DNA of 64,000 nt from Rhina ancylostomus (Eukaryota), in assembly GCA_030265395.1 (NCBI GenBank), contig JARFYF010000065.1, positions 16,022,365-16,086,364 of the forward strand, written 5' to 3'. The notes beneath the pieces are model-generated. The model was not told where the DNA came from and searched no databases. It worked only from the letters and a program-made list of their open reading frames with translations. Position 1 is the first letter of the stretch; each line of letters starts with the position of its first letter. The translations under genes were made by a program, and so were the position numbers. This document shows, piece by piece, positions 19,151 through 56,899 of the stretch.

Positions 19151-21299
19151 TCGGTGCAACATCAAACAATAACTACTGGTTTCCTTTAGCTGCTGTAAAC
19201 TGTGTTAGGAAACTGGCCCAAGATCAAATCTGCTTGTCAAATATCAACTATAGTTCAGCACTTAAATTTTGAAGTCCATGCAATCTTTTTGGCTACTTCA
19301 TCTCCAGTATGTGACTGAATTAAGTGTGAAGTGAGGGTTAATGTCCATTACTATGCAGATATATTGTGTGTCGCTTCAGTTTATTTCAGTCAGAACTCTC
19401 TCATCTCGGTCTGGCACTGAAGCATGCAATCTAGGCTGATGTCACCACAAAGTACTGAAGGAGATGCCACCTCAGTTAAAGGAAGCCAGCAGGTTTGACT
19501 GTTCTAGTGGACATAAATGTTCCCCTTGGCCCTAATTTAAAACCAGCTGGAATTCCCCAGTTGTCCTAGCCTATCAACTAATGTTGTCAAAGCAAATTCA
19601 TTGGTTATTGATCTTATATTTGTTTGTGGACTCTCAGTATGCAATCATTAGGTGCTATACATTCATCTATATAACAACGATGACACAAAAGGTCATTGGC
19701 TGTGAAGCACTTTAGCTTGCTATAGGTATTAATTTCACATTGTTCCATTGTCTAATAAGGTTCAAAAGCAGCATTGCAAGACCCAGTTTTTTTCATGTGC
19801 ATGAACATTTCTTGCAGTCCTGCCATTAGAACAGGCACTTCCTGGACTGATTCATCTCACCCCAGTGTCATCTCCCCATCATAGTTCGGATGTGTGCAGA
19901 ATGTATTATTTACTTAATAACAGAAGTTGGATCAAAAGATCACAATTTACAATTACGATATTAACACATGCAGTTCAACAAGGCTAAAGGGAGTGAAGTC
20001 TTGATTTAACTTGTTTCCCCTTCCCCTGTGCTGAAGTATTGTTTGATGTGTTGAAAATCACTGCTACAATTTTTTATTTCTGTAAAATTTCATTGTCAGT
20101 CATCCTCTCTATAAACAGGGATGTCTGTGAGTTGATGAGCGTGATTTACGGCTCCCACCCACGGCCATGTCTGAGTTGTTTCTGTTCCCTGCCCCTTCTT
20201 CCCACCCCATTTCTTCCCCTCCTTCCCATCTGGTTTTTCATGATACCCTGCTCCATTTGATCTTCTTTCCTTAGTTGCCTGGGGCTACTATTGGAGAGAT
20301 CATTTTAATGGCACTGACTCCTTTCATGTAGTCCATTTTCAAGTGAATTTGTTACTACCGGTCTGGCAAGTAGGTGTGTGTGTGTGTAGTACACAGGTCT
20401 TTTAAAGTACATACGCAAATTACAATAATGCTTAAAGCAAATTTTCTCAATTTTCACCATTTTTGGTGAATTCTGATGTAGCATTATGGTTTCTCCTAGC
20501 AAAACATTTAGTGCACTAAAAATGCATGCCATCCAATTGCTAGACATTTGTTTCCTCCTCCCAGTTGTTTGCAGAATGCCAAGACAATGGGAGCCCTCAC
20601 ATCCCAATGCTTCTCTGCAGCCCGCAAGTTAATCGATGTTAGTTTGGCTTTCTTGGCAGTACTCCACGTCAGAAGCAGAAGTTGTAGGTTCAACGCGCGG
20701 GGGGNNNNNNNNNNNNNNNNNNNNNNNNNNNNNNNNNNNNNNNNNNNNNNNNNNNNNNNNNNNNNNNNNNNNNNNNNNNNNNNNNNNNNNNNNNNNNNNN
20801 NNNNNNNNNNNNNNNNNNNNNNNNNNNNNNNNNNNNNNNNNNNNNNNNNNNNNNNNNNNNNNNNNNNNNNNNNNNNNNNNNNNNNNNNNNNNNNNNNNNN
20901 NNNNNNNNNNNNNNNNNNNNNNNNNNNNNNNNNNNNNNNNNNNNNNNNNNNNNNNNNNNNNNNNNNNNNNNNNNNNNNNNNNNNNNNNNNNNNNNNNNNN
21001 NNNNNNNNNNNNNNNNNNNNNNNNNNNNNNNNNNNNNNAGTTGGAAGATTAAACAGTTTCTTAAAGGATATGAATGGGAGGAATTTACGGTAATCTTAAA
21101 AAATGGAATTAATGCCAAAGGCTAGGGTAAGCCTTTTGATATGTTTGGGAATGGAGTGATGGGAAGGCATCTGAGGCAATGGTATTCTGTAAGAGCACTA
21201 AAGAGGAAGGGGACGATAAACCTACAAGATGGTGAGAAAGGGGTTGAGCCACAGTTGAAATTATACCACTGAGATTTAAATGGCATTGTCCTCTTTCAG

Positions 21300-21473
21300 T
21301 CAGAAAACCATTTCAATGCGAACTGCTCATTCTGGAATTACTCTGAGCGCTCCATGATGGGATTTTGGTCAACACAAGGCTGTCGACTGATCGAAAGCAA
21401 CAAGACTCACACCGCTTGTGCCTGCAGTCACCTCACCAATTTTGCGGTGCTCATGGCTCACAGGGAGATTTTG
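21300..21473 (+). CDS. ADGRL1: Latrophilin-1 exon: GPS motif with autoproteolysis site and tethered agonist
   Basis: ctctttcag| ... TTG|gtaagt; encodes [45 protein letters not shown]|[13 protein letters not shown]. The cleavage site falls at codon boundary 21434/21435. Confidence 0.97.
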
Positions 21474-21539
21474 GTAAGTTGCTTTGTTACTTTTGAACTA
21501 TAGAGCCTGACTTTTATCGTGTGTTTTTTTTGATGTGGG

Positions 21540-23600
21540 TAACTGTGCAAGACTGCTGACCAAATTTTCAGAGCTATGGGCTGACAAGTCTCTAGTTCCT
21601 GATGGACTGCATTCTATGGTCTGAGAAGTAGTTGGAGAAGTGGTTGATATATTGGTATTGATCAATTCAGGGCAAATGTTATTAGATTGGAAAGTAACGA
21701 GTTACTCATTTATTCAACAGGCAAGTGAGCTTAGCATTCATCATAGTGAAAATGTTGGAAGCTACTATTAAAGGTGTTATTATTGAGGCACTTTGAAAAG
21801 TTCAAGGTAATCAGGCAGAGTTAACATGGTTCTGTGAAAGGAAAATCATATTTGATTGGTTTATTGGAGTTCTTTGGGGGGGAAGTGCTGTGGATGAAGA
21901 AGAACCAGTGGATGTAATGTACTTAGATTTGAGGTGTCACATCAAAGGCATTGCAGAAAATCAAAGCTTAAGGTGTTGGAGGTAATGTATGAGCATGGGC
22001 AGATGATTGGTTGGTGAACAGGAAAAGGTGAGTAGGCATAAATGGGTCTTTTTCTGGCTGGCAAGATGTAATAAATGGTATGGCACTGGAATCAGTACGG
22101 GGGCTTCAACTTTTTACAACTAATATAAATGACAGGGATGATATTGCTAAATTTGGTGATTTCACAAAGATGGGTAGGAAAGTAGAGACACAAGAGACTG
22201 CAGACGCTGGAATCTGCTAGAGCAACTCTGGCCCAAGCAACATATGTGGGTTGGGGAATGAATTGTCAATGTTTCGGGTCCTGATGCAGGGTTTCAACCC
22301 AAAACGTCGACAAATCCTTCCCNNNNNNNNNNNNNNNNNNNNNNNNNNNNNNNNNNNNNNNNNNNNNNNNNNNNNNNNNNNNNNNNNNNNNNNNNNNNNN
22401 NNNNNNNNNNNNNNNNNNNNNNNNNNNNNNNNNNNNNNNNNNNNNNNNNNNNNNNNNNNNNNCAGATGCTACTCAACCTGCTGAATTCCTCCATGGAGTA
22501 CAAAAGGGTAATGGGTACTTTGGGGATGGAAGAACAGACCAGTAAGTCATAAAAGGACTTCCCTTCCAAGTGCTGACAGAGGAGGAAGGGGAAGATGTGG
22601 TTTGATGATAAAATATTGTTGAAGCTGGTGGAAGTTGCAAAGGATGATCCATTGAGTAAGGAGGCTAGTGAGCAATAAACTATATCATTCGTAAAGGAAT
22701 TGAGTACAAAATTAGGGAGATTATGTTTCATCTATGTAGAGCATTGGTGAGACCACATCTGGAGTATTGTGCACAGTATTGGCCTCCTTGTATAAGGATG
22801 CCAATGTGTTAGAAACAGGGCAGCACAGTGGTGCTACTGATAGTGCCACAGTCTCACAGCCCCAAAGACCTGGATTCAATTCTGACCTCCAGCATTGGCA
22901 GTGTGTAGTATGTTTGGTCTCCCTGTGACAGTGTGGGGGTTTCCTCCAGGGGTTCAGGTCCCAAGTACATAATGGTTGATAGGTTAATTGGTGACCGCTA
23001 ATTGTGTAAGTGGCTGGGAGATTCAGGGTAGTATTAATGGACACGAGAGAGAATAGGTTGCAAGTGAATATCTGGTGGATGGGTTACTCTGAGAGCCAAC
23101 AGGGACTTGATTGCCAAATGGTCTCCTATGTTTTGTGTGAATATGAGTTTGGAGAAGATTTATTGAGTAATAACTGGAATAGGTGGGTTGTCTTAAGGGG
23201 AGAGGTTCAACGGGCTAGGCATATCCTCTGGAATTTAAACTGAGAAGGGGCTTGATTGAAACAAATAAGATCCTGAGGTCTCAACAGGGTGGATCTGGAG
23301 AGGATGTTTCTTGTGAAACGATCTAGAATTAGAGGTCACTGTTTAACAATAAGGAGTCACCTACAGTATTTAATGTAGGTGAGGTGAATTTTTCTGTCTT
23401 TGTATCTCTCTTCAAAGGGCAGTGGAAGCAGAGTCTTTGAATATTTTTAAGGCAGAGGTAGATGGATACTTGATAAGCGAGGGAGTGAAAGCTTACTGTG
23501 GGTAATGAGGACTGCAGGGTTGAGGTTGTAATCAGATCAGCAAGGATCTTATTAAATGACAGAGCAGGCTTGAGGGGTTGAATTTTCTATTCCTTGCTAT
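21540..23600 (+). mobile_element. Decayed CR1-clade LINE ORF2 (RT and 3' tail) with nested insertions
   Basis: Degenerate RT motifs (PVDVMYLD, IAKFGDFTK, LVRPHLEYCAQYW) and CR1-like tail; interrupted at about 22185-22492 and 22818-23146. Confidence 0.8.
22818..23146 (+). mobile_element. tRNA-derived V-SINE (HE1-like) nested in CR1
   Basis: gggcagcacagtgg head with B-box-like gattcaattc and V-domain-like gggtttcctcc...ggttaattgg; CR1 sequence resumes on both sides. Confidence 0.7.
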
Positions 23601-26600
23601 CCTGGGGTCAGAATCAATCTCAACAAAAGAGTCGCACCAGATCACAAAAGGTGTCACTCCCCAGAGGATGTCAGTAGGTCCATTTGTTTGATAATCCAAC
23701 AGTTTTCCTGCTTTGTTTCCTGGTGCCAATTCACCAGATTTATTATATTAGGTTTCATAATTTGTGTTCATGACCTCTGCTGGTTTGAAATGATAACTCA
23801 CAAGCTGGCTTACCTGAAAGCAAATCGTAGCTGTCACTTCAAACTGCTACTAAATATAAAAAATATATACTTGTATAGTGTCTTCAGGATATATCAATTC
23901 TCTTTGCAACCAAGGACTTTTAAAATAACATTTTGCAGTTTTGCAGCTAAATGCTGACGTTTTCCTGCTAAATCCAGGTCAATGTTTTATGAATGACAAG
24001 TGTCTTCTTAATATAGAAAGGGAAAATCCAAGTTTATGAGGAGTGTGGCTTGGATAGTGGCAAGGTTACTTTGATTTAGTGGACTTGGGATTTGATCTGG
24101 ACATCAACCTCTACAGTCTTACTGAACCTTTGCAGCTACCATTGTCTCCCAGACATCCCATCAGCAGTGCGTACTGCAGCTTGGATATTTGCTCCATCCT
24201 GATGCTCCTCTTCCTGCACAACATTATCCAACCCTCGCTGTGTTTGGGATGCTCAGTAGACATTCTTGGGAGTAGCATATGGAAGCACTGCACTGAAACA
24301 GTCAAGGCAGCTGTGAGTTATTTCCATTGGCTTGCTCTGTGTAAATTTGAATAAGAGTGAGCTTCACTAGTGGCACCCCAATCCTTGATTTTGTTTTTGG
24401 CATCCAGGTTACCAGCCAGGTTTAGCAAGTAGCCTTTGTCCCTAAGTAGATGGCTTTTAATNNNNNNNNNNNNNNNNNNNNNNNNNNNNNNNNNNNNNNN
24501 NNNNNNNNNNNNNNNNNNNNNNNNNNNNNNNNNNNNNNNNNNNNNNNNNNNNNNNNNNNNNCCTAAGTAGATGGCTTTTAATAGAGTCATACAGCACAGA
24601 AACAGGCCCTTTGGCCCACCGTGTCCATTGCCAACCATTAAGTACTCAATCTACTTGTAGAAATAAATGGAATGGTGAGGTGGAGTGCAGTAGAATGAAG
24701 GACTGGTGGCAGTGTCTTAGACACTTTGTCCATACCTGGTATAATGGATTCCTGTGGTAACAAGTGGAGTATTAAATCCTTGCAAGTTCTGAATCCCTAT
24801 ACCATCAGGAATCCATCCAAAGCAGCAAATCCACATGACCTCCCATTCTGCCTTGTACCATCACATCCCACCATGGCATGAAATCGAATGCAATAAATCA
24901 GGTGATGTGTGAGCTAACACCAGAAAACAAAGCATGAAAGCTGCCAGATTGTTGACCCAACTGATCTGTTAATGCTCTCCAGGGAAGGAAACCAGTTGCT
25001 TGACCTTTTCCTGGCCAATGTGACTTTAGTCCTACATGGTACACTATTGAGGTTGATGTACATACCATCCTTTGCAAACAAGGCATCTAATATCAGTTTG
25101 TTATATTTATGTGAGGAGGATTGTAAAATCCTGCAGGAATCTCCAGCTAAATTAAGCCAAAGAGTAAAAGTTGAGGGCTTTGATTACTGACAGTGTGTGT
25201 GCACTGGTTCATTAGTCAGCAAGGAACTGCAAAGTTCTGCCACCACCTGACCTGATGGCCTGAGACATTATTCCAGCAGAAAACTGACTCTCAGTCTGTA
25301 GACAGTGGGTCTGATCTCAGCCTATATTGTGAACCTTCCTCTGTCTTTACAACTGCATTGGGTCAACAGCAGAGGCTCTTGTGATTGTCCAGCCACTTCT
25401 CTGGGTCCTACAGTATTGCTAGAGGTCTGCTAACTACAGAAAGCAAGGTTATAGATCCAAAATCAAACAATAAAACAGAAAATGCTAGAAATACTCAGTA
25501 GATTAAGCAGCATCTAAGGAGAGAGAAACAATTTTTTTTCACCTTGATGATTTTCCATCATACAATTAGGAAAGCAAATGATACATTCACCTCCTATGTA
25601 AAAAAAAATCTTTGTACATGGTAAAGACATCTTACTGCAGTTACATAGGACCTTGGTAGAACTGCATCTAGAATATTGTGTCAACATTTGGTCTGCCTAC
25701 CTGAGATGAATAGATTTTTAGGTATTAATGAAATCGAGGGGTATGAGTTAGTGCGGGAAAGTGGAGCTTTTGTGGAAAATCAGCTGTACTCTTATTGAAT
25801 GGTGAAGCAGGTGTGAGAGTCTGAATGGCTGCCTGCTGCTTTTATTTATGTTCTTATTCTTTCCAAAAATATAGATGCTCAACAACAAGCTTAACATTGA
25901 TCCATTCAAAACTTCCTCCAAAGTTGACACAGGAAAGAGCCAGTTCCTGTGAACAAAACATTCCGGGAGTTATTCTAGAGAACAGGTGTGAAGCTGTATT
26001 ATTTATAGTGAGATTACACTATCGACATCTCACCTCCCATTCAGTGACTCTCCAGACTCTCCCGAAAGAGAGAGTTTCACTGGAGAGTTCCAGTGAAATC
26101 CATGTACCCTGGATTAAGTATCTAAGGAGTTGTTAAAAGTCACTCTTCATGGGGTGATTTAATATAATTAAATTAGCAATCTGCAGCTCTTGTGGGAATA
26201 TTCAATGGCAAACTCAGGATAAATCTGGGTCGACAGGTTTGTGTTGCATGTCCAACTCTTTAACTATCAGTGGATTAAAATCCATTCCACCTCTCCCAAG
26301 CCGCTAAAACCAACCTATCCTTGGGAGTTAAAGTCTTACCCTTGTGCCTCCAGTTGCACACACCCTTATTAATTGACTAAAACCAGGGCTTTGTCAGCTC
26401 ACCAGGCTCAGTAAGACTGCACTACTCTAGACTGATGAAAGCAGAAAATTCTGGAAACACTCAACAGGTTGAGCAGCATCTGTGGAAAGAAATAGCATTA
26501 ACTTTTCAGGTCGAAGACGCTTTATCAGAACCCAAGATTGATGTTCTGTTTGACTGGACCAGACCAAGATAGAGATCCAAATGCAATGTGGCTGAGCTCA

Positions 26601-27974
26601 GCAGTATACAGTAGATATTTCTGAAAATGCCTTGTTCATGGGAGCCAAGATTCAAGTATAAAGAGGCAGCATATTAACAGACAGCTCCACTGGTAATCCT
26701 GCGTGAGAGCAGGAAGATTTTGAGCTCAGTCTGCATGAGTGCTGTATTCACGGATCTCATCTGGGGTAACAAAGGGGCTTAATGCTCACTGGCAGCATCT
26801 GAGTCAGAGTTTTGGGAACGAGTCCCACTCCAAAAATATTGAACACACTATCCAGACTGACTCTGGCAATGCAGTACTAAGGGGGTGCTGAGCTATCCAA
26901 GGTGCCATCTGATAGATGAGACATTGGGCAAAATCAATCTGCACTGGGCTCATCAGACAGAAGAGAGGGTCAAAATGCACTTCACATCCAACTCTGAGCT
27001 TTACACCAGGGATAGCTAGTAACCAAATAGTGATCCCCCTACGTTTGTGTTGCCAACTTGTGGTTAGAGGGAATAGAGTTATCTCGCTCTAATTTATTTT
27101 ACTGTTTTTTTAAATTTTAGAGTCTTCTTATTTTAAACATTTTGTGCTGTTTGTAAGCTGTATTTGAATAGATTTTAAATGTCTGTAACAGAGACGTGTA
27201 CAAACAGTTCAGAATCATGTTGTCAAAGAGTGCCAGAGCCCTCCGGGACAGGGCCTCAGGGTACATTGCCTGAAGCCTTCTTGCTGCTCAGTGCTCACTC
27301 TACTTTGGGAGACATCTCTCTGTTGCAGCCCAGCAACTTGTCCAGCTGTCCTCATCAAGATAAAGCAGGTAAAGTTCAGGTGAGTGCTACCTGCCTGACA
27401 GTGCTTTTGAATCTGGCAAAAGCCAGCCCAAAAAANNNNNNNNNNNNNNNNNNNNNNNNNNNNNNNNNNNNNNNNNNNNNNNNNNNNNNNNNNNNNNNNN
27501 NNNNNNNNNNNNNNNNNNNNNNNNNNNNNNNNNNNNNNNNNNNNNNNNNNNNNNNNNNNNNNNNNNNNNNNNNNNNNNNNNNNNNNNNNNNNNNNNNNNN
27601 NNNNNNNNNNNNNNNNNNNNNNNNNNNNNNNNNNNNNNNNNNNNNNNNNNNNNNNNNNNNNNNNNNNNNNNNNNNNNNNNNNNNNNNNNNNNNNNNNNNN
27701 NNNNNNNNNNNNNNNNNNNNNNNNNNNNNNNNNNNNNNNNNNNNNNNNNNNNNNNNNNNNNNNNNNNNNNNNNNNNNNNNNNNNNNNNNNNNNNNNNNNN
27801 NNNNNNNNNNNNNNNNNNNNNNNNNNNNNNNNNNNNNNNNNNNNNNNNNNNNNNNNNNNNNNNNNNNNNNNNNNNNNNNNNNNNNNNNNNNNNNNNNNNN
27901 NNNNNNNNNNNNNNNNNNNNNNNNNNNNNNNNNNNNNNNNNNNNNNNNNNNNNNNNNNNNNNNNNNNNNNNNNN

Positions 27975-28220
27975 CCTACAGCACAATTCAGGCCCTCCAG
28001 CCCACAAAGCTGTGCCGAACATGTCCCTACCTTAGAAATTACTAGGCTTACCCATAGCCCTTTTTCTCAGCTCCATGTACCAATCCAAAAGTCTCTTAAA
28101 AGACCCTATCATATCTGCCTCCACCACCGTTGCTGGCAGCCCATTCCACGCACTCACCACTGTCTGAGTAAAAACTTACCCCTGACATCTCCTCTATACC
28201 TACTCCTCAGCACCTTTAAC
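27975..28220 (-). mobile_element. CR1 LINE 3' end (reverse)
   Basis: cagcacaattcaggccctccagcccac...atccaaaagtctcttaaaa...ccattccacgcactcaccac is a reverse-oriented CR1 tail. Confidence 0.7.
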
Positions 28221-29950
28221 CCTTTGATTCTTCTGTTCTAATAGAAGACACAACCTTGGCACTCTTGAGTGTTCTGTCCCTGCACTGTTTGTGTGTCATT
28301 TGTCATGTTTCCAAACTGTTTCTGTTTCAGATTTCCAATATTTCAAGACTTTTTGCTACTTACGTTTTATGGCAATTGAGAGCAAAAGGCAAATGGTGGC
28401 CTCTCGAACTTGCTGCTGATTTTCTGAAGTTTAATGCTTGACAGGCTATAGTCATTGGCCTGTGATGTCATGAGGGTCTTGGATCTGGTCCCCATGTGTA
28501 CATCAAGATTTAACTTCAGCTCTTAAAGCAATTATAGTTGTACCAACGGGAAGCAGGTAGGGAAGTGAGTGATTTGCCTCAGGCTATGCAGGCTCCCTTG
28601 GTAAATTCCTTTATAGAATTAATAATGGCTCGGCACCAATACAAGAGAGAAGGGCAAGCCAGGAGTTGACAAAAATCAAAAGGTTTCTTGTCGGGATTCA
28701 GAATTGGCTCTGACTTATTTCTCAAGTTGTCTAGGGATGTTTTCCCAGAAGTTGCAGGGAGTTAAAAATCACTTTGGAACTGGCAATGCTGTACAAGCCA
28801 GATCTGAGTTTGAGTAGACAAAGATCTGGCTGATAAAGTATGATGTGAGGACATTTGAAATTGTCCATTTTGGCAAGATTACTTTTCCTTTTAAAAAAAA
28901 CTGCTATGTGGCGAGAAATTGCAGCACTCTGACATGTAGAGGATTCTGGGAGTCCAAGTGCATGATTCACTAAAGACTAGTATGCAGGTCGAACAAGTAT
29001 TTGGGAAAGCTGGCAGGATGTTGTTGTTGTTGGGCCAAATAACTACAACATTAGGGAGATTGTTCTTCAGTTACGTAGAGCTTTGGTGACACCACATAAG
29101 GAGGACCATGAACAGGACTGGTCTCAGTGAAGGAAGGAAGAATGTAAATGAGTCATTCCCTCTCCCTCTCCATCTCCCTGAGTAGAACTGTTCTTGTTTG
29201 ATCCACTGATCTACCTTGAGGGCTCTGGAATTTTGGCTTCCTTGAAGTTGCTGAGTTCCAGAATTTGAGCTGGTGCAAGGTTGGCCTTTGATTCATGGGC
29301 ATCATTCTTTCCAACCCAACCACCGGGGAAGCTTGACTACAGTCTGGAAGTGGATCCTGGGCCCACCCATTGGGTGTGTGTGTCATTGTTTCTGGAGAGA
29401 TGGAACAAAATGTATAATAAAGGTGCAGTATTGAGGCTTGGCAGTTTTCATGTTTCCTCAAAATTAAATGTATTAAAAGCAGAGCAACAAACAAAATGCT
29501 GGAGGAACTCAGCCGGTCAGGCAGCATCTTTGCCTACATTAAAAGTAGTGCAGGAGGAGGCCCTATTATTTCCAAAAGTAAATATCTTAGCTGGTAGGGT
29601 ACTGAGTCAGGTGCACCAGGCAGCTTTTTTCCTCTTGCTGTGCTGAGTAGCTGATTAGTCTGGATGTCAGGGCATCTGCACTTCATCCTTGGAGTCTTGC
29701 ATTGGAGCGAGATGTTTAGTTTGGCCAGATACTAATGAATTGCCTCTCCCCCAGAGCATGTTACCTATTTCACTGTGGGGCAGGTTTATGGAATATCAGG
29801 GGGTTTTTTTTAGGTTTGGGCAGACAGCAGGAACAATGGAAAGCCTGGCTGAACTTGTCTTGGCTCAGAATCTCTCTCCAGCTCTCATTATCACTTCTGT
29901 CTTATTTAGTGCTGTGCTGACCTTTCACTGAGTTTCTGCTTTCCCACCAG

Positions 29951-30160
29951 TATGAAGACAGAATGCACAGACTACTGCTGTCCGTAATCACCTGGGTTGG
30001 TATCGTTATATCGCTGGTCTGCCTCACCATCTGCATCTCCACCTTTTGCTTCCTTCGAGGGATCCAGACCGATCGCAACACCATCCACAAGAACCTCTGC
30101 ATCAATCTCTTCATTGCTGAGCTTATCTTTCTAATCGGCATCAATAAAACCCAATACCAG
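29951..30160 (+). CDS. ADGRL1: Latrophilin-1 exon: TM1-TM2
   Basis: ttcccaccag| ... CAG|gtgggc; encodes [70 protein letters not shown]. Confidence 0.97.
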
Positions 30161-30469
30161 GTGGGCATGGCCATTCCCCAGATATGAGGAAAGAGTAAGT
30201 AATAAAGGTGTGAGGTGAAGAAAAACGTTAATGGCAGGTGGAGGTCTAAAGTTCAGTAGCAGGTTCCCACAGGGTAAAGGTCAGGGATAGGCTGAAGGTT
30301 CACGAGTCATTTGCAATGTTGAGGCCTGGTAAATGTGGAAGGGTGGAAGAATCTCTTCAAATCCAGATACTACCTTTGAACCAATGATTAAACACTGATG
30401 AAATTCAGCAGGACTTAGCCAGTGTAAGTGGGCCTGATTTTAAACATTTACAGGCCATACCCCGGTTTC

Positions 30470-31330
30470 AAAGTCAGAGATAATTGTTATATGCACAAAT
30501 GCATCTATATGCAGGTGCAATAGAAAGGCTTCCTAGTAGCAACATCACAGGCACATAGCATCATATAAGTAGTATTCACAAGAAAAACATGAATTAAAGA
30601 TAAATTATACACAATTTTTACAAGAACACAATTAGAACAAAAACATGTCGATTTTCGTGCAAAGTGGTTGTAGTATTGCTAAACTGTAGTGATTAAGGTT
30701 GTGTCGGTTGGTTCAAGAACCAAATGGCTGAAGGGAAAGAGCTGTTCTTCAAGCTGGTGGTGTGGGATTTCAGATTGGTATTGGTTTATTATCGTTACTT
30801 GTACCGAGGTGCAGTGAAAAACTTGCCTTGCATACCAATCATACAGGTCAATTCATTACACAGTGCAATTACATTGAGTTAGTACAGTGTGTATTGAGGT
30901 AGTACAGGTAAAAACAATAACAAAACAGAGTACAGTGTCACAGCTACAGAGAGTGCAGTGAGAGGTAANNNNNNNNNNNNNNNNNNNNNNNNNNNNNNNN
31001 NNNNNNNNNNNNNNNNNNNNNNNNNNNNNNNNNNNNNNNNNNNNNNNNNNNNNNNNNNNNNNNNNNNNAAAAACAATAACAATACAGAGTAAAGTGTCAC
31101 AGCTACAGAGAGTGCAGTGAGAGGTAAAGACAGAGTCCATGGAGGGGAGGCTTGTGTCCACGACACACTGGGCTGGGTCCACAACTCTCTGCGGTTTCTT
31201 GCGGTCCTGGGCAGAGCAGTTGCTGTACCAAACCGTGATGCATCCATCTATGGTGCATCAATAAAAGTTGGTGAGTGTCAAAGGGGACATACTGAATTTC
31301 TTCTGTACCTCCTGCCCGATGGTAGCTGAA
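30470..31330 (-). mobile_element. Rex1/Babar-type LINE fragments (two adjacent 3' ends plus RT C-terminus)
   Basis: Minus strand KFSMSPLTLTNFY*CTI...GCITVWYSNCSAQDRKKPQRVVDPAQ matches the recalled Rex1 RT C-terminal motif LTNFYRCTIESIL..CITxWYGNC. Confidence 0.75.
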
Positions 31331-33779
31331 AGAAGATGGCATGGCCCAAATGGTGTGTTAAAATTGGTTAAAGAGGCATTTGGGATCCTTTGCTTTATAA
31401 ATACAGGCAAAGGCAAGGAAGTTGAGATGAGCCCTTATCTGGTTCATCTGTAATCAGAGTTGGGTACTAAACTTTAAGAAAGATGTCAAGGCTTTCCAGA
31501 GTAGGCAAAAGAGATTTACCAAAGTTATTCCAGGAAGGAGAGATTTGGTGATCATTAGGGACTGGAGAAACTGCGGTGGTTCTCAGTGATAGAGAGAAGG
31601 TTGAAGATATACTTAAAATGTGGAAGGCTATAAAAAGAGAGCAAGTAGAGGGAGTAGATGGAGAGAAAGTGTTTCCATTGGCTGGAGAAGGGTCAAGAAC
31701 CAGAGACTAGAATGAAGACAGTTGGCAAAAAAGGCTAAACGTGAGGAAAATCTCTCTCTCACAATAAGTGGTCAGGTTTTGGGATCCCCTCATGTGCCAG
31801 TGGAGGCAGAATCAATTGTTGGGTACGAGAGAGAACTGGATAAGTATCTGAAAGAGTTCGTAGGCCTATAGGGGGAATGGGATTAGCTGGATTACTCTTA
31901 TAAAGAACTGGTACAGACCTAAAGGGCTCAGTAGCTGCTTTCCATATTGTAACCACTCTTTGTTTTCCAATTCATCAGTGGTTACAACTAATGAGTTGGA
32001 TCTTGTATGGTTACGCCCAGTCCAGTGAGTCTAATGTAAATACACCTAATTCATTAAATCTTTGTTAGTCACAACCTCAAGCCATTATTTCTAAGATATT
32101 TTCTGTCAGTCAAGAGAACTTAAGTGGAAGTCCCTGGGATGTTGAATAACATTTCATAATCAGTGGAGGAGAGATGAACAAATAGTAGTTCAGCTTCTTG
32201 GATCCAAGTTGTATGCTGAGCCTGTCCAATGGTTCTGGCGTAGCCACTTCCAATTAATGTGGTTATCTACCTGCGTACTGATGCAAAATAACACTCTGTG
32301 ACATCTTTGTGTGATGGGAATGCTCCCCTGCTCGGATCCAAACTTGGAGGAATGCGAACTGTCAATAAATGGGCAGTTGAATGTTGTACCAGTGTAGCGT
32401 ATTACATAATCTCCGTATGTAGCTACCTATTGATATGCCCAGAAATCGTATCGTATGATTTATCTTTTCTTAGTGTGCAGAACCGCTGCCATAATCTTAT
32501 TCTGAAATGTTTTTAAATAGGGTGATGTTATTAAAAATAGCATCAGCCATCTGTCTCTATTTCAGACTGAATGTTCTGCAGTACTAGGGGCTGATCCATG
32601 AATCTGCCTACAAATAGGGCCAGCCACTGTTGGATAGACTGGGAATCTTGGGTGCTAAATTTTCATCTGGTTGACAGGATTCATCAGATTAATCTTAATG
32701 AATCAGTTAGGCAGTATGGGTAGCTATGCTAAACATCTATTTGTTGGTGATTACTGTCCAGTCTGCAAGTTCCACAATTCTTCCATCACTTTGCATAAAT
32801 TGATCATGCCGATAGCAACTTCAAAATGTAGATCTAAATGTTCATTTTGCAGAAATGGGACATATCTTTTGTAGCTCGGTGTCAATTTAATTTGATAAAG
32901 TGCTTGGGAAGGTTTTATTGCATCAAGTATACTCACTGAGGGTTGTTCACAAATATCACTGAAGATAATTCCCAAATTTGTGTGGCTGAAGATCCTTCAG
33001 AGGGAAAAGCTGGGAAGTACATCTAGGTTCTCTCTGCATCTAAACCAGGACTGACACAGTGTAAACATCAAGGAGCAGAGTTTCTGCTTTGGATACATTA
33101 AAAAAATCCAGCACATATCTTGGCCAAAGTTGCGCTGATTTTGAGTACTTTCACCCTCCTTGGCAGATGTTGTGGCAACAATATGCAATGAACCAGCACA
33201 ATTGAAAAATATATCATAAATGTTCTGGTAAACAATTAGTTAATACCATCCACCACCTGTGTGTGAACAAGACTTTCTAACAGAAATTAAGTATTAAACA
33301 AGAGGTGAGTAACACCAGTGGTCACTAAGATTCAGCAGACCCTGAGATTGACATTAAAACTGTTTCTCAGTTCTGTTGGGATACAATCCTGAGTACCAAG
33401 CAATATATTTTTAAAGCATCAGATGGTTTCCTGGGATGAATTGCTCATATTATTTGCTATCATCATTTCCTTTGCAGGCCCGATAAGGCTGTAGCAGTAA
33501 GTTCCTTGAAGCACGGTAATGAACCAGTTAGGTTTCTTCAACCGCCCAGTAACTTTAGGGGTCATTTTTCGATGCCACCATACAAAGGAATAGATTTATT
33601 GAATTCCATTTCATAACTTGAGTGAGTGAACTGGGTTATTAATGGAGTGTCATTTCACTGGGCTACATTACCCAACCAACGTATAAATTCTCAGCACAGT
33701 AATTGGACAGATTACATCTGTGCATTTCAATCAGAGGCTCTATTATACAAATTCAACGATTCATTAGCAAAAGGTGTAC

Positions 33780-35400
33780 CAGTGGATTGCTAATGTAATA
33801 CCTATGTTTAAGTGGGAAGATAGAACATCTCTTGGGGTCTACAGAGCAATTTAAATGCTAGTCAGGGTGAAATGGTTTGCCACACTTGATTCTTGGGGTC
33901 AACTTAAATAGACAAAAAGAAAAGTAATCAAATCTCTGCTGACAAAATAGAAAAGCATTTGGAAACCAAAAGTTTCCCGATAAGTAGCCTTTCTAAGTGA
34001 AGTCTTCCATGTTCAGCCTGAGTGAATTCCTAAAGGAGGTAATGGAGAGATTAGACCAGGGTGGTGCAAGGGATAACATTTATTTACTTTTCCCAAAGGC
34101 TTTTGATAAAGTGCCACAGAATTAACAAGTAAAGTCAAAGATAGGGAGCTAGTAGCAGAATGGTTAGCTAGCTGGCATCGAGAGAAAGCAAGAGTGGTCA
34201 GCTACCTTTCATCCGAGCAAAGTAGAAAATGGAGTCCCATAGTGTTCCACATTGGGGCCACTGTCGTTCATAACGCATATAAATGATTTAGCTTTCAGAA
34301 TGAAAAAAAGTTTAAGTTTATAGATGACACAAAACTGGTAGTCAGTGATGAGAAAGAATTCAACAGTGTTGCAGCTAATAGAGCCGCTGCCTTAGTGCCA
34401 GTGACCTGAGTTCAGTCTTGACTTCATGTACTGTCTGTGGAGTTTGTACGCTCTCTCTGTGACCATGTAGGTTTCCTCTGGGTGCTCCGATTTCCTCCCA
34501 CATCCCAAAGACATGCAGGTTGGTAGGTTAATTGGCCACAACAAATTGCCCCCAGTGTGTAACTGAATGGTAGAATTGACAAGAATTGTGGTGAGAGTAT
34601 ATAGAAAGAATTAACGTAAGATTATTGTAAATGGTCGGTGTGGACTTGCTGGGCCAAAGAGCCTGTTTCCATGCTGTAAACTCATTCTGATTACATAACA
34701 TTAATCTGTGGACATGGCAAATGAATTCAATACCATACCTGTGCTGAAATTTGTGGAAGAGAAAATGAGCAAGTTAGATCCTTATGTTCTAAGTAATATG
34801 TAAATAGGATTCAGAAGCAGATAGGCAAACATGAAAGTAGTAGTACAGTGCAATGCATCTGTCATGAAAGCAAACCAAACACAAAGGGTTAAAGGATAAA
34901 ACTGAAAAGTAGAGAAGTTGAACCTGTTTCAGAGCTGGCATTTGAAGTACTGTATGCAGTTACATAATGTAAAACGGGCAGAGACACTGGACAGAACATA
35001 AATTTAAAAAAAGTTATTATGTCAACACCAGAAATGCAACATTACACCTTTTCAGAGGAGGTTACAAGACTTGGGTCTCTTTCCTCTTCAAAAGCAGAGG
35101 GTGAAATATGATCAACTAAGGTCTTTAAAATTGCTTGTGTGTAAAATCTACTAAATCATTATGGGGAAGACAAAAACACATTCAATATAAGGTGGGAGCT
35201 CAAGCAAACAAGTAGGGAATTCTAAAGTAACAATTATCTAGGATCAGTACAGATCTATTTAAAGGGAGGTTAGATCAGTATATGAACAGAGGATTATTAG
35301 ATAAGGAAAAATGGAAAGAGATTCAAATGCAACATAAATTTTATATCGACTGGTCAAGTGAAATGGCCTTTTTCCATGTTATCTACTCGAGATTGCAATA
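33780..35400 (+). mobile_element. Old CR1-clade LINE RT fragment
   Basis: WIANVIPMFKW, FPKAFDKVP, LGPLSFITHINDL and FIDDTKL motifs in broken frames. Confidence 0.7.
34363..34690 (+). mobile_element. V-SINE (HE1-like) nested in CR1
   Basis: gtggagtttgtacgctctctctgtgaccatgtaggtttcctctgggtgctccgatttcctcccacatcccaaagacatgcaggttggtaggttaattggcc closely matches the recalled V-domain, followed by a CR1-like tail. Confidence 0.8.
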
Positions 35401-36820
35401 CACGGTGTCCAGTTGGCAGGTGTACTGAAAGCTTGAAGTCTGAACTGTATGATCGTTCAATTTTTTCTTCCTCAATTACATTGTAATAACCAGGCAAGCA
35501 ACATAATCCATAAGGCCAGTTGCGCTTGGCCCTGTACTAGACCATATCATAGGGGAATGTTTGTTGTTTCTGGGATTAGGAGTTGGGAAGCTTTTGAATC
35601 AAGGTACATTAATCTCATTGTAAATGAGTTTGGGCCACTTCAGTCTACTTCATAATATGCTCAAACTCTGCAAGACATAATTGTTAGAACTCGCCAACTT
35701 CCAAGCGTTAGCAAGAATGGAAANNNNNNNNNNNNNNNNNNNNNNNNNNNNNNNNNNNNNNNNNNNNNNNNNNNNNNNNNNNNNNNNNNNNNNNNNNNNN
35801 NNNNNNNNNNNNNNNNNNNNNNNNNNNNNNNNNNNNNNNNNNNNNNNNNNNNNNNNNNNNNNNNNNNNNNNNNNNNNNNNNNNNNNNNNNNNNNNNNNNN
35901 NNNNNNNNNNNNNNNNNNNNNNNNNNNNNNNNNNNNNNNNNNNNNNNNNNNNNNNNNNNNNNNNNNNNNNNNNNNNNNNNNNNNNNNNNNNNNNNNNNNN
36001 NNNNNNNNNNNNNNNNNNNNNNNNNNNNNNNNNNNNNNNNNNNNNNNNNNNNNNNNNNNNNNNNNNNNNNNNNNNNNNNNNNNNNNNNNNNNNNNNNNNN
36101 NNNNNNNNNNNNNNNNNNNNNNNNNNNNNNNNNNNNNNNNNNNNNNNNNNNNNNNNNNNNNNNNNNNNNNNNNNNNNNNNNNNNNNNNNNNNNNNNNNNN
36201 NNNNNNNNNNNNNNNNNNNNNNNNNNNNNNNNNNNNNNNNNNNNNNNNNNNNNNNNNNNNNNNNNNNNNNNNNNNNNNNNNNNNNNNNNNNNNNNNNNNN
36301 NNNNNNNNNNNNNNNNNNNNNNNNNNNNNNNNNNNNNNNNNNNNNNNNNNNNNNNNNNNNNNNNNNNNNNNNNNNNNNNNNNNNNNNNNNNNNNNNNNNN
36401 NNNNNNNNNNNNNNNNNNNNNNNNNNNNNNNNNNNNNNNNNNNNNNNNNNNNNNNNNNCGTTAGCAAGAATGGAAATAATATTATCTTCATTATTTGTTG
36501 TTATTGTACACAGCTCGTAATGTGACATGTTTTGTGTGCAAAGTCAGGCCCAGTCCACTCCAATCTCAGGCTCAAATCCACCACTAACCTTCTATCTGAA
36601 TCAAGGCTTCAATCCAATTCAAGTTTCAGGTTCAATTAGCCCCAACCCAGATGTTGATCTCAATCAGAGGGCTGTATTCCAATTTAAGTCAGTCACACTC
36701 CAATTTGTTATTTCTTCCTAAAATGCTTCAATCCTGCACCTAATTGAAATGGCAATTTTTATCCCCACCCTTCCCGGCATCCCAGACCCCGATGTCACTT
36801 ACTCTGTCTTTCTCTTTCAG

Positions 36821-37041
36821 GTTGTCTGTCCAATAATCGCAGGCTTCCTCCATTTCTTCTTCCTGGCTGCCTTCTCCTGGATGTGTCTTGAAGGCGTCCA
36901 TCTCTACCTCATGCTAGTTGAGGTCTTTGAGAGCGAGTACTCCAGGAAGAAGTACTATTACCTCTGTGGTTACTGCTTCCCGGCATTGGTGGTGGGAATC
37001 TCTGCAGCAATAGACTACAGGAGCTATGGAACTGAGAAAGC
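36821..37041 (+). CDS. ADGRL1: Latrophilin-1 exon: TM3-TM4
   Basis: tctctttcag| ... GC|gtaagt; encodes [74 protein letters not shown]; phase 0 to 2. Confidence 0.97.
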
Positions 37042-38639
37042 GTAAGTGAAATGGAATGAACTGTCTTTATAAGAGTGTGTGAGAATTCCAATATAAAGTA
37101 GTTAAAGAATCAAGATTGGTGTGTCAAACACAAAGCTAGATCTGAGTGAGGAAGGAATATACATTAAATTGATTGGCAAAGATTAAGTACTTAGATTTAA
37201 TTAAATAAATAAATAGGAGATGGATAAATCTAACTCTTGGAATGCCGTGCACAGTTCTGATCTCATGCTAAAAAAGGAATATAGATGGGGCAAAAAAAGA
37301 TTTACAAGGTTGGCATGAAGTATACATTAGGAAAACAATACAGAATGAGACTTCGCTGTTGAAGTGAAGATAGGACAAAGACCTTATAATTGAAGTCTTT
37401 AAAACATGAATGGTCTTGGTAGAATATAAAACTGTAAACTATTCATATGAGGTAGTTGTCACTAAATCCAAAAAGGAATTTGGGAGGAACCTCTTTACCT
37501 GGAAAGTGGTGGAATGTGGAATTTGCTGCCATTAGGAACAACTGAGGTGAACAGCAGATACATTGAAGGGGTAACTAGAGAAGTACATGAGGGAGAAGGG
37601 AACAGAAAGATGTGCACTTGAGGGGAAATGAGTATGTGTGGGTGTGGTAGGAGGCTGATGCTGAGCATAAACACTAACATTGACCAACTGGGCCAGTTAC
37701 TGTTCCTGTGGTGTAAAATCTAAGCTATCCTATGACATCGCAAAAAGTCCCATCTCCTGTCAAATGTCAACGAGCTGTGAAATTATTGCAGTGATGTAAA
37801 GCAGTTTTTAAGAAACCTGTTCCGCCTCCTACATAATGGATTGAAATCCTGACCTTGATTGTTATTCAGATATTTCAGTCAAACTCTGGATCCGTTCCAG
37901 TAGTTTTAACTCACAAGAGGAATTGTGATGATCATCATATTCTGATTCAGCACTGTGTCTAAATTANNNNNNNNNNTTCACACTGGGGTATGGTTGGGAA
38001 GTGATTTTGTTACTGGACTAATAATCCACTATTTAAAACCCATAATGGCGAGTTGAGAAGAGATTTGAATGCTTTTCAAATTCCCAGATAATTCACCAAT
38101 GCCCTTTGTGGGGAGGGAAGGATGTGTCGTCCATACCTAGCCCAGCCCGTACCCAACTCCAATACCACACCCATCGTAATGGCCCACATGACTTACTGAG
38201 CCACAATGTGTGAAACTACTGCCAGTGGTTCAAGTTAGTGGCCAACCACCACCAGCAGGATCAGACTGGGTGATTTGGAAAGCAGCCTTGCCAACAATAT
38301 TCGCACATCAAGGGTATGGTTTAAAAAAATATGAACAAAATGGAAAGAGATACAAACATTGGTTTTCTTCCTTGGCCATTCCCTGTGACAAAGCAATCCC
38401 TGCTCCAACACCTTCGTAAAGGAACTTTTCTAGCTTGCTTTCGGTGGGAAGTTTGATGTCCCCTTGTCTTTCACCTTTAAGATTGACCCTTGACCTCCAG
38501 GGTCATCCTGCAGGTTGTTTCCCACCGAGATGCTCCACCTTGCTGAAGTGAATCGAATGTTTCAGTGTTTAATGTTAGCAGCAAGCATATACTTCTGGAT
38601 TCTTAATAACAAAGTAATAAATGCTACCTGAGGTGATGC

Positions 38640-39430
38640 AGGACCAGTTCAAATTCGAGTCATAGGTCATGGAATTGTGAAATTTTCCATTTTGATATAA
38701 GGAAAAAGAAGCATGTTGTTATAACTGGGGAGAGGTTGCAGAGCTCTGAGGTGCAGAGAGATCTGTGTGTCCCAGTACATGATTTGTAAGTGGCTAGTGA
38801 GCAGGTACAGGAAATTAGGAAAGTCAATAGAATGTTAACATTTACTGATGGAACAATTGAAAACGTGGGGTGATTATGCTTCAGTTATACAGGGCATTAG
38901 TGAGACCACATTGTATTGTGGTCTGTGTATTGTGTACAATATTTGTCTCCTTATTTACAGGATTGGTCTCCTTAAGTAAGTTAATACTTTGGAAAGCAAG
39001 AGAAAGTTTACGACACTAGTAACTGGAATGAGTGAGCCGTCTAATGAGGAAAGACTGAACAGCCCGGGCTTGTAACCCAGATTAGAGGCATGACTGAAGC
39101 ATACATGATGCTGAGGATTCTCAACAAGGTGGATATGAAGAGGAAATTTCCACTAATAGGAGAATCCAGAATTAGGAGTCACTGTTTCAATGAGGGGTCA
39201 CCTATTTAAAAGAATGGAGAGGCAAGATTTTTATTTCTTTTGGGGTTGAGTGTTTGGATCTCCCTTCCTCAAAGGGCAGTGTGAGTAGAATCTTTGAATG
39301 CTTTTAAGGCAATAGTAGATTCTTCATAAGCCAGGTGGCAGCAGGTTTGAGGTTACTGTGGGGAAAGATGGGAACCCTGTGCAGGCTGAAGGGGCCAAGT
39401 GGCCTTCTCCTGCTCCTAATTCATACATTT
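38640..39430 (+). mobile_element. Decayed CR1 LINE 3' fragment
   Basis: CEIFHF, QRDLCVPVHD and QLYRALVRPH motifs, and tail ggctgaaggggccaagtggccttctcctgctcct. Confidence 0.7.
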
Positions 39431-40922
39431 GAACAAATGAGAGATGTAATTCAATCTGCATTTTAAGATAACGCATTCTCTACTTATTTTATGTATTTCT
39501 ACCAAGGATTCCAGTCTGTATGTGTGTAATAGAAGCTGAATGTTAGCATCCTGCTGATTTGAACCCCTTTGGTGGATTTTCAGTAATGTTCCCTTTTAAA
39601 GAGTGTTTTGGTACTTTGATAATCATTCAGTCTGTGGTCCTTTTCGAGAATCACTGAAAACAGCCACTTATCAGAATGAAATTTGTCCTTCAATAATACT
39701 CAAGATTGCAGTTTGCCATAGCAACAACAAAAGTGTTGTGGGAACTTGAGTCCTATTTAGCTTTTGAAATAGCTTTGTCTACACAGCTCCAAAAATTGTT
39801 AAGTAGAGTAGATATTTGTAAAGGAGGCACAGCATGGGTAATTGGTGTGTCATAAGTGTGTATTGGAAGACTTCATTTTGCCTTGCAACTGTAGGGTTGA
39901 TCTAGACACATGCCGTCAATGAGTGCCACATGGTAGAAAACTGTACATCCCAGATGGTAAACAGAAGGGCAATGTTAAGCCATTTCTCCAGTCTCCTCCC
40001 TCCTTTAATATAGCCCCTAAAACATTTTTTGTTCAGTTTTCTTTCTGGTCATCTGCACTGTTTCAGTTTGCGGAAGGTTCCAGAGGAATGCAAGTCAGCA
40101 TTGCTTTGGGACGGGGCATAAAAACAGAAAATACTGGAAACACTCAATAGGTCAGGCAGCACCTGTGGAAGGAGAAACAGTTAACTTTCAGGTTCAAGCT
40201 TCCATTGTACACATGGAGACAAGAATGTTTGCTACCACATAATGTTAAATCGTGGTCTGAAGTAAATCTGTTATTTATTCAAACATATATTAAGAGCAGG
40301 CAGCTTGAGCCTGCTCTGCCATTTAATCAGATCACAGCTGAAATAGGTTCAGAGGGTCTCAGACCTGAAACATTAACCCTGATTCTGTCTCCACAGATGC
40401 TGCCTGACCTGCTGAGTGTTTCCAGCATTTTCTGTTGTTATTTCAGATTTCTAGCTGTAGTGTTTTTTTGATTTTTCAGACTGGACTGTCTGACTTCAGA
40501 GATGGGCTGCTCTAAGCTACAAGTTTCCAGCCTTTTAGATTGAGTACTTTGCACTAAACCAGTCAAGTTCCTGAGTAATATTCCCCTCTAAGCTTCAGGG
40601 AGAAGGCCATTGACGGGTGCTAAGTTTTGTTTCAATGTTTTATTTAAGTGATAAATGCCTCTGTGCCTTGTCACAGTTGATATTTAAGGCAGGATATCCA
40701 TCACCAGTGAGGGGGCAGTGAATGAGGCTGACTGTGGCACATTTATCACCAACATTATGTTTCACTCCATCTAACACACTAGGCTAATGCTTTTTCTCTG
40801 CTCTCTTCCTGCATTTATCATCTCCACAATTTTTTTCCTCTCAATGTCCATTCCTTTTCCACTTTTTCATTCGTTCCTCCTAACTCTCATCACCCATTCC
40901 TCCCACCCCTCCACCCCCGTAA

Positions 40923-41030
<108 letters not shown>

Positions 41031-41866: not shown

Positions 41867-41958
41867 ATGAACCTGGTCTTCCTCATGATCACGCTGCACA
41901 AGATGGTCCGGAGCAACAGTTCACTGAAACCAGACTCCAGCCGGCTGGAGAACATCAA
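41867..41958 (+). CDS. ADGRL1: Latrophilin-1 exon: end of TM5 and ICL3
   Basis: ttttcctctggcag| ... AA|gtaagt; encodes [30 protein letters not shown] plus 2 nt (phase 2). Confidence 0.96.
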
Positions 41959-55260: not shown

Positions 55261-55351
55261 TGCATGCTGCATGTTCAGAGTGAGTTAACTTTATCATCCT
55301 TCTTGTTTCTCTCTCCCTTTTCCCTTCCCTATTAATTTTCATGCTTGCTAG
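55261..55351 (+). promoter_or_regulatory. Candidate splicing-regulatory 3' splice-site region of the mini-exon
   Basis: Two TGCATG (RBFOX-type) motifs at 55261-55266 and 55268-55273, branch-like gttaac near 55284, pyrimidine tract about 55296-55330, and TGC motifs at 55342 and 55346 just before the AG. Confidence 0.55.
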
Positions 55352-55393
55352 TTACCCCATATGTGATGGCTACTATAGTATGGATTTGCCTGG
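55352..55393 (+). CDS. ADGRL1: Putative alternatively spliced 42-nt ICL3 mini-exon
   Basis: Long pyrimidine tract, then catgcttgctag|T TAC CCC ATA TGT GAT GGC TAC TAT AGT ATG GAT TTG CCT GG|gtaaga. Phase 2 to 2 and in frame with the exon ending at 41958, giving (N)YPICDGYYSMDLP(G), similar to the recalled ADGRL2 loop insert NYRVCDGYYNTDLPG. Confidence 0.82.
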
Positions 55394-56899
55394 GTAAGAA
55401 AACCAACCAGTGCTTTAAGTTCAGAGCTTGTCTTCCTCATTGTCCATCCGCTGGAACGTTGGTTAACACACAGAGCTGGATCCATGATGTGTGGGTGGAA
55501 GAGCCCATTTCTGTGCTGTATGCCACATCAATGGTCGTCATTAAAAACTATTTCCTGGAATTGGTCTGTTAAAACCTGATTCTGTTCACGATCCTAATTA
55601 CCTGTGGCCTGGAAATCAATGTTTTTTGTTCTCCAGCTTCCCGTTCCCCTGCCCGATACGCTTCAATGACAGCAGTCTCACACACCCAACGACAGTGATG
55701 CCTTGTGATCCAGTGTTGCCTGGACACACAATCCAATGATCCTCGAACTTATCAAATGCTAGGAGTATAATAAGTCTGGATCCAGAATTGTGTGTGAATC
55801 TGTTCCTAACACATCCTTTAGGGGAATGTTTCATGAAACAAATTCTCCTGTTGGTGATGTGTTGCACTCAGATGCTTGTGTGTTCTCGGAGATTTCTCAC
55901 GTGAGGAATTAGCAGTGATGGCAATTCTGATGAAAAGTTAATGTTTACTGGTTACCAGGTCATTAACTAACCATATGCTTCATGATCCTTGCTTTCGACA
56001 GCCATACCAAACAATGGGCAGTGGGCCCCTGTACATGGTCTCACTGCACTACCCCTCAGCCCACTCTCTGTCCGACTAAGGAAGCCTCTGCATATTAAAC
56101 ACAGCACAGTAGGCGGTGTTCTTCAGGACCCTGGAGCCACTGATACGAGTTCAAAAGGGCAGTCAGCACCCTTCAGCTTTCAATACTGTAGGCTTGAATA
56201 AGTATTGGTACACAAGGGATCTCTTCACCTGTAGGTCACACAGTGTGGGGCAAATATGTACAGTGCAAATGAAACACACAGGATCAGTACAGAGTGTAAC
56301 TGGGAAGGCTGTGTCCACGGCATCAGTACTGAATCTTGGAAGGGTCACTTAAGGTCAATGCTGAGCTAGAGGTTCATTCCAGAGTCTGGGGGAGGTCATG
56401 TAGATTCAAACCCAATGTGTGAAGGCTGTATGGGGTCAGAATCGAGTGTCTGGAATCACAGGGTCAGCATCAAATGGGGGATTGTGTAGCTTCATTTCCT
56501 GGTAGGGGGTGGGAGTCACATCGGGTTAGTTCTTGTGTTGCGAGTCAGTAGGACCCATCATAATAGAAGTGCCTGCATGTGTGACGTACCAGATGGGGTG
56601 GGGTGATCACACAAGGCGAGGGAGGGGCTGGGGGTGGATCAGATTCTGGTGGTGATCACGAGAGGGAAGCAGTGATTGCTCCTTTGGGCCAGTAAGAAGT
56701 AAGGGTGGTTCCACGGCAGACAGTGGAGGAGGGTTGTGAAAGGATAGCAACCACATCAGAGGTCGCAGGGAGGTAATCGAGAACGAGGAAGATAATGACT
56801 CATAGTCATGGGGAATGGTATGTGGAACTGATTAGTGCCATGGATGATGACTGAGGGTAAATGGGGCTGAAGAGACTGGGTAGATGAAATGGGGTTGAA

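Follow-up and report, generated by a model that had tools for sequence, protein, structure and literature searches.

An ICL3 exon in ADGRL1 of Rhina ancylostomus: counterpart of the ADGRL2 insert, shared by sharks and rays

Introduction

Does the latrophilin ADGRL1 of a ray carry a splice insert in its ICL3, and if so, is that exon new, ancestral or borrowed from a paralogue? According to three papers, mouse Adgrl1 splicing is limited to one extracellular exon (PMC13108381), Lphn2 is spliced at the Lphn3 E24 site and Lphn1 is not (PMC10830413), and ICL3 varies in Lphn2 and Lphn3 only (PMC6629964). A preliminary description of a 64,000-nt stretch of Rhina ancylostomus DNA (the window) had proposed a hidden ADGRL2-type exon inside ADGRL1. 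Its statement that mammalian ADGRL1 has no ICL3 insert agrees with PMC10830413 and PMC13108381. Here, we present the exon (exon A), its distribution and its probable history.

Results

Position, frame and splice signals

Exon A occupies positions 55352-55393 of the window, 42 nt without a stop, preceded by AG at 55350-55351 and followed by the donor GTAAGA from 55394. It lies between the TM5 and TM6 exons of ADGRL1, 13,394 nt from the end of the TM5/ICL3 exon; its length is a multiple of 3 and its phase is 2-2. The coordinates (~13.4 kb into the intron), the AG/GT bounds, the frame and the spliced peptide given in the preliminary description were all borne out. With exon A, the spliced reading is RLENIN-YPICDGYYSMDLPG. 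Inclusion adds 14 residues just before TM6, or 23 together with a second cassette, exon B. The whole-protein tblastn did not recover the small exons A and B, and both were placed by a scripted scan. The features are:

5747..41003, plus strand: upstream ADGRL1 coding exons in the window, by tblastn of Hemitrygon ADGRL1 X1 (linker/HormR, GAIN, GPS 21300-21473, TM1-2 29951-30160, TM3-4 36821-37041, and 40928-40994)
41867..41958, plus strand: upstream TM5/ICL3 exon, ending in ...RLENI plus AA, phase 2
55261..55273, plus strand: two TGCATG hexamers, starting 91 and 84 nt before exon A; across the window such hexamers have a background of 0.51 per kb
55298..55351, plus strand: acceptor region of exon A, with pyrimidine tract, TTAAT element, two TGC trinucleotides and AG
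55352..55393, plus strand: exon A, the 42-nt ICL3 cassette in phase 2-2, which encodes (N)YPICDGYYSMDLP(G) and corresponds to mouse Adgrl2 exon 23
55394..55399, plus strand: donor GTAAGA of exon A
L002:1199-1225: cassette exon B, 27 nt, YEDDKPFLK, ~1.2 kb past the window end and 9.8 kb downstream of exon A
L003:3818-3986: constant TM6-7 exon, beyond the window end

The pyrimidine-rich tract upstream of exon A spans ~55298-55329. The three paralogues have five ICL3 cassette exons in the R. ancylostomus genome, and each is followed by the donor GTAAGA. A TGC near the acceptor was likewise found in five of five cassette exons, but also in two of six constitutive exons, a weak hint at a putative regulatory role of these elements. 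In SRRM3/4-dependent neural microexons, which are very short, UGC closely precedes the 3' splice site; at 42 nt, exon A is longer than the strict 27-nt class. The TGCATG hexamers are presumably an RBFOX-type site.

Elsewhere in the window, a short GAIN-domain exon (~13 residues, ~10488-10526) corresponds to Adgrl2 exon 14 / Lphn3 E15, which is alternatively spliced. Reading frames at ~3800-5270 are broken; we take them to resemble CR1/LINE reverse transcriptase. A short repeat at ~41480-41530 was matched by many contigs of related runs.

Exon A among chance candidates

The TM5-to-TM6 intron (35,859 nt) holds 2,088 stop-free phase-2 candidates of 9-90 nt bounded by AG and GT, so splice signals alone are no proof of exon A. 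It is singled out by its homology to the ADGRL2 insert. Exon A scored 72 against that insert; the next candidate (28) was a piece of exon A itself, and the next unrelated one scored 27. A degenerate DNA pattern for C-D-G-Y-[YF]-x-x-D-L-P-G had two matches in the 2.2-Gb genome, exon A and the ADGRL2 exon, and the reversed-pattern control had none. The score and the two genome-wide matches uphold the homology to the ADGRL2 ICL3 insert that had been claimed earlier.

Exon A could in principle be a pseudo-exon, dead or due to chance, and absent from all transcripts: AG/GT bounds are cheap, with 77 candidates of exactly 42 nt in this intron, and inclusion was seen in no read or contig examined, being known from database models. 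However, sharks and rays agree at 14 of 14 residues, and both pattern matches in the 2.2-Gb genome fall in latrophilin ICL3 introns, so that a pseudo-exon is hardly credible. Exon A is almost certainly a real exon.

Gene identity

The assignment of the gene to ADGRL1, also part of the preliminary description, was supported. In a tree of the GPS-7TM-proximal-tail region with inserts removed (34 rows; gar ADGRL1 and lungfish ADGRL2 were dropped at the cutting step), it fell among batoid ADGRL1, in an ADGRL1 clade supported by 98/99. Grouping it with ADGRL2 was rejected (p-AU 6e-72, 19 rows). The linker exon (5762-6049) was 97% identical to ADGRL1 of Amblyraja, 96% to Hemitrygon, 84% to Scyliorhinus and 72% to Callorhinchus; against ADGRL2, the matches listed reached 52-64%, over at most about half the query. 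Hemitrygon ADGRL1 X1 aligned exon by exon to the window and its flanks (tblastn). Separate ADGRL2 (G000:C63) and ADGRL3 (G000:C104) loci, assigned by their TM5/ICL3 sequence, are found in the same genome.

Synteny is only suggestive for ADGRL1 identity. The neighbours of ADGRL1 in human 19p13 include the ADGRE cluster. The scaffold of the ray gene has ten more adhesion-GPCR TM6-7 exons, 10-16 Mb off (G000:C65:0.14-0.68 Mb and 5.7-6.2 Mb; L022-L027), and the one examined was closest to ADGRE5, which suggests an expanded ADGRE cluster on the ADGRL1 scaffold. A search for ASF1 gave a match to a small contig only.

Two cassette types in three paralogues

Exon A is not of the Lphn3 E24 (B) type (27 nt, YEDx[KR]PF[IL]K), whereas exon B of the same gene is. 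The preliminary description had cited an ICL3 micro-exon of ADGRL3; that micro-exon corresponds not to exon A but to the 27-nt exon B, which ADGRL1 also has and which, lying beyond the window, had escaped the preliminary description.

The ADGRL2 gene of the same genome has both an exon A (45 nt) and an exon B, only ~0.3 kb apart, and ADGRL3 has exon B only:

G000:C63:5257417-5257373 and 5257057-5257031 (L030), minus strand: ADGRL2 cassettes A and B
G000:C104:29119435-29119409 (L034), minus strand: ADGRL3 exon B

The best 14-residue score for an A-like exon in the ADGRL3 intron (14,968 nt, of which 645 bases were unreadable) was 24, versus 85 for the true exon. Between ADGRL1 and ADGRL2, 31 of 42 nt of exon A are identical, and the flanks show no clear similarity over 100 nt. 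The ray ADGRL1 acceptor TAG aligns with TAA, the first three exon bases of ADGRL2 exon A; the 3-nt length difference between the two exons would fit an acceptor shift. As separate observations, the ADGRL2 cassettes of this genome have Gly and His where Arg and Phe are usual, and its ADGRL3 exon B has Cys in place of the Tyr of mouse and of the solved ADGRL3 chains.

Exon A in existing elasmobranch gene models

The identical 14 residues, YPICDGYYSMDLPG, were found in RefSeq ADGRL1 of two batoids and two sharks, Hemitrygon, Rhinoraja, Heptranchias and Chiloscyllium (XP_072925353.1, XP_072925365.1, XP_078285580.1, XP_067828954.1 and XP_043550659.1; records P0002, P0058, P0060, P0066 and P0072). 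Sharks and rays diverged more than 200 million years ago. In Hemitrygon akajei X1 (XP_072925353.1) and X11 (XP_072925365.1) and in Heptranchias perlo (XP_067828954.1), the same insert sits at the same junction and is followed by the B insert. The GPS-7TM-proximal-tail protein of the window gene is 100% identical to that of Hemitrygon over 384 columns; with an insert that does not differ at the protein level, the elasmobranch RefSeq models hold the same exon in a close relative.

The chondrichthyan ADGRL1 records listed numbered 25: at least five with A and B, at least nine with B only, at least ten with neither, and one without the region. The A+B records (two from Hemitrygon, one each from Rhinoraja, Heptranchias and Chiloscyllium) cover at least four of the nine species among the records listed. 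These exon A counts are a lower bound, as 15 of the 73 members of the main ADGRL1 cluster were among those listed, and all models with exon A are automated predictions. The Hemitrygon models show all three forms: A and B, B alone, and neither. Exon A was in none of the three chimaera records with the region, among the records listed, and it may therefore be limited to elasmobranchs. Exon B was present in chimaera, shark and ray ADGRL1 records and in no bony-vertebrate ADGRL1 record.

Thus, exon A is real, highly conserved and already in automated annotation. The preliminary description had called it hidden, and had named beforehand its presence in existing ADGRL1 annotation as removing the novelty; with RefSeq models of four elasmobranchs including it, that claim falls.

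The proximal tail of the same models varies as well. Ray ADGRL1 models carry 13 additional residues there, a possible donor read-through (L004:133-171), and unrelated sequences also extend the junction, by 9 residues in sturgeon and by 45 in rodent, the latter probably at splice site B. This splice site may be older than rodents.

Splicing and transcripts

Exon A is very probably alternatively spliced. A spliced contig of run X6, from a relative, joins the TM5 exon directly to the TM6 exon and represents the skip form, and contigs of runs X5 and X6 show splicing from the preceding exon into the TM5/ICL3 exon. Over 55290-55460, the possibly-RNA runs X2, X4, X5 and X7 of relatives gave no contigs, which is no evidence either way.

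PMC13108381 reports that mouse Adgrl2 exon 23 adds 15 ICL3 residues, with an inclusion of ~74% for glutamatergic, ~49% for GABAergic and ~7% for endothelial cells. By analogy with this paralogue, and from weak motif hints, exon A is probably neuron-biased. The exon tables of the paper, compared by eye, show Adgrl2 exon 23 to be of the A type (45 nt), whereas exon 24 is of the B type (27 nt) in both Adgrl2 and Adgrl3. Its text equates Adgrl2 exon 23 with the ICL3 exon of Adgrl3 as homologues; by its own tables, the match is Adgrl2 exon 24.

Distribution outside cartilaginous fishes

The bony-vertebrate ADGRL1 set consisted of 138 protein annotations from bichirs, sturgeons, paddlefish, gars, medakas, coelacanth, lungfish, amphibians, reptiles, birds and mammals; many are isoforms of one gene, and the teleosts are Oryzias only. 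The junction was present in 128 records and the region missing from 10. None of the 128 had exon A or exon B: 124 junctions were plain, among them those of 15 Oryzias records that were read separately, and four were odd predictions. The ICL3 continuations of these four (P0210, P0216, P0219 and P0351) are unlike A or B and were taken as prediction errors.

When the insert-bearing sequence was used as query, the best 120 of 522 matches comprised one ADGRL1, from a stingray, and 119 ADGRL2-type proteins. A lamprey record (Lampetra, XP_078733095.1) has a 14-residue A insert with the ray-like Pro, followed by a B-like piece. In the trees, cyclostome genes fell outside ADGRL1+2 (support 89/96 with 34 rows, 100/98 with 19 rows); placing them with ADGRL2 (p-AU 0.056) or outside all three paralogues (p 0.079) was not rejected in either case.

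In latrophilin-like proteins of invertebrates, the same place in ICL3 is occupied by inserts unrelated in sequence (Antedon P0402, P0560 and P0561; Branchiostoma P0395; also P0403, P0406, P0417, P0419, P0435 and P0450). Antedon isoforms have 0, 10 or 16 extra ICL3 residues, as if there were two cassettes. The unrelated crinoid and amphioxus cassettes suggest that tuning exons have been sited in this intron for a long time.

Discussion

Ancestry and loss of the cassettes

Both ADGRL1 and ADGRL2 carry exon A, and so does a lamprey gene; from these sequences, and barring transfer, exon A would therefore predate the ADGRL1/ADGRL2 split. The preliminary description had gone further and placed the cassette before the latrophilin duplications. 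This stands for the ADGRL1/2 split but not for that of ADGRL3, which has no exon A in its readable intron, and the trees allow the lamprey gene more than one place. The common ancestor of ADGRL1 and ADGRL2 would have had both exon A and exon B. Elasmobranch ADGRL1 would have kept both, ADGRL3 would have B only, and ADGRL1 would have lost both on the bony-vertebrate stem. We consider such ancestral retention with loss in bony vertebrates likely.

Alternatively, gene conversion or exon shuffling might have brought a copy of the ADGRL2 exon into chondrichthyan ADGRL1, and exon A might never have existed in bony-vertebrate ADGRL1. This would account for its absence from all bony-vertebrate records without any loss, and the lamprey + ADGRL2 clade was not rejected (p-AU 0.056). 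However, the ADGRL1 insert has 14 residues and a Pro near its start, as in the lamprey and unlike the 15-residue ADGRL2 insert, even that of the same genome. Identity to the latter exon is only 31 of 42 nt, with no clear likeness of the flanks over 100 nt. Moreover, two cassettes 9.8 kb apart would both need to be transferred, and exon B is found in all three paralogues. Copying is thus quite improbable.

A clean loss would also be mistaken if exon A were present in bony-vertebrate ADGRL1 genomes and missed by annotation. Short exons are often overlooked, several of the listed shark and ray species have no A-containing model, and the bony-vertebrate absence rests on protein records rather than on introns. 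We nevertheless regard this as unlikely: the same pipelines annotate A and B in ADGRL2 of gar, sturgeon, Xenopus, lizards and birds, and the stingray is the sole ADGRL1 in the best 120 of 522 insert-query matches. In addition, long-read and single-cell analyses of mouse Adgrl1 report no ICL3 splicing (PMC10830413 and PMC13108381).

Returning to ancestral retention, its broader form seems rather likely to us: an early vertebrate latrophilin with a two-cassette ICL3 switch (A then B), a mammalian pattern (both in ADGRL2, B in ADGRL3, none in ADGRL1) that mostly reflects differential loss, a single stem loss in ADGRL1, and sharks and rays that keep A unchanged. Our literature search, which excluded most subscription papers, found no paper on ICL3 exons of shark, ray or lamprey latrophilins, and the parts of PMC4765045 and PMC8584163 that could be seen hold nothing on exon A. 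The loss history (A and B ancestral, kept in elasmobranch ADGRL1, with probably one bony-vertebrate loss) may be new, a modest point.

Proposed signalling role

Support for a signalling role of exon A is indirect and comes by analogy from LPHN2. Human LPHN2 variants v13 and v14 differ solely by a 16-residue ICL3 insertion, with which agonist-driven G13 activation was lower and arrestin-3 binding severely impaired (preprint PMC12236479). Judged by its length and place, the v13 insert would be an A-type exon, although the papers give 16 and 15 residues. The ICL3 of ADGRL2 contacts a QQQ patch on G-alpha-13, according to PMC12663980, and the deposited ADGRL2-G13 chain 9e51_A has no ICL3 insert. 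No solved structure with the A insert was found: three distinct chains were matched, two with B only and one with neither.

In the insert-free ADGRL2 structure, a short ICL3 contacts G-alpha-13; the longer loop would displace it and, by prediction, would loosen the ICL3-G13 contact and hinder arrestin. Insert-free non-neural receptors would then be expected to signal more through G13. Whether exon A dampens G13 and arrestin in ADGRL1 as it may in LPHN2 is, in our estimate, evenly balanced. The reading as a whole, an in-frame ICL3 exon homologous to ADGRL2 exon 23, likely alternative, mainly neuronal and predicted to weaken tethered-agonist-driven G12/13 and arrestin-3, is one we hold with good confidence.

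The published Gs-versus-G12/13 switch concerns another cassette: according to PMC10830413, exclusion of Lphn3 E24 shifts coupling from Gs to G12/13, and E24 is a B-type exon, not A. The same paper reports that the abundant mouse Lphn1 variants, which have no insert, prefer Gs; a loop insert is therefore not needed for Gs coupling of ADGRL1.

The insert could also act as a tyrosine-phosphorylation or trafficking motif rather than by sterically altering the contacts with G protein and arrestin. Two tyrosines and YYSM occur in the ray peptide without variation among four species, and YYSM presumably fits YxxM / Yxx-hydrophobic. Across homologues, however, neither tyrosine is invariant (FY in lamprey, YF in herring), and ADGRL2 has YYNT at the same place. 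Since C-D-G and D-L-P-G are invariant and the aromatics are exchangeable, a structural role is favoured over a phosphotyrosine role, and the motif explanation appears rather unlikely. For the same reason, the conserved CDGYY core proposed earlier survives in its C-D-G but not as a strict YY, which is better written as two aromatics.

Implications

The absence of ADGRL1 ICL3 splicing in the mouse literature is true of the sampled bony vertebrates, but not of sharks and rays. Once confirmed in genomes, the loss would date the simplification of ADGRL1 splicing and give a matched pair, with and without the A insert, on which the effect of that insert could be tested. Shark ADGRL1 would then be a natural test of a loop-based G13/arrestin tuning that ADGRL1 gave up elsewhere. 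The comparison also tells apart two exons regarded as homologues in one paper: the match of the Lphn3 switch exon is Adgrl2 exon 24 and not exon 23. These points are useful to adhesion-GPCR specialists and do not describe a new system.

Comparison with known systems

ADGRL2/LPHN2 exon 23 (mouse numbering, PMC13108381) occupies the same intron in phase 2-2, has the C-D-G-Y-Y-x-x-D-L-P-G core and is followed by a 27-nt cassette (exon 24). It belongs to a different paralogue and measures 45 nt (15 residues) as against 42 nt (14 residues) in ADGRL1 exon A; the ADGRL2 insert has an extra Asn, and Arg or Gly where ADGRL1 and the lamprey have Pro. ADGRL3/Lphn3 exon 24 is likewise an ICL3 cassette in the same intron and phase, whose inclusion shifts coupling towards Gs, as PMC10830413 reports. 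This 27-nt exon is of the B type and matches L002:1199-1225, not exon A. ADGRL1 exon B is thus the counterpart of the exon reported to shift Gs versus G12/13 coupling.

The Lampetra fluviatilis record, 'ADGRL2-like' X1, resembles the ray form in its 14-residue A with Pro and its B-like 9-residue insert, and an insert-free record exists too. It differs in having FY where the ray has YY, and the trees are compatible with more than one relationship to the gnathostome paralogues. Mammalian ADGRL1/Lphn1 is the orthologue of the ray gene and its intron agrees in position and phase (mouse exons 21/22), but it has no ICL3 cassette. Exon A is therefore a known element, the counterpart of the studied ADGRL2 exon, already in automated shark and ray models.
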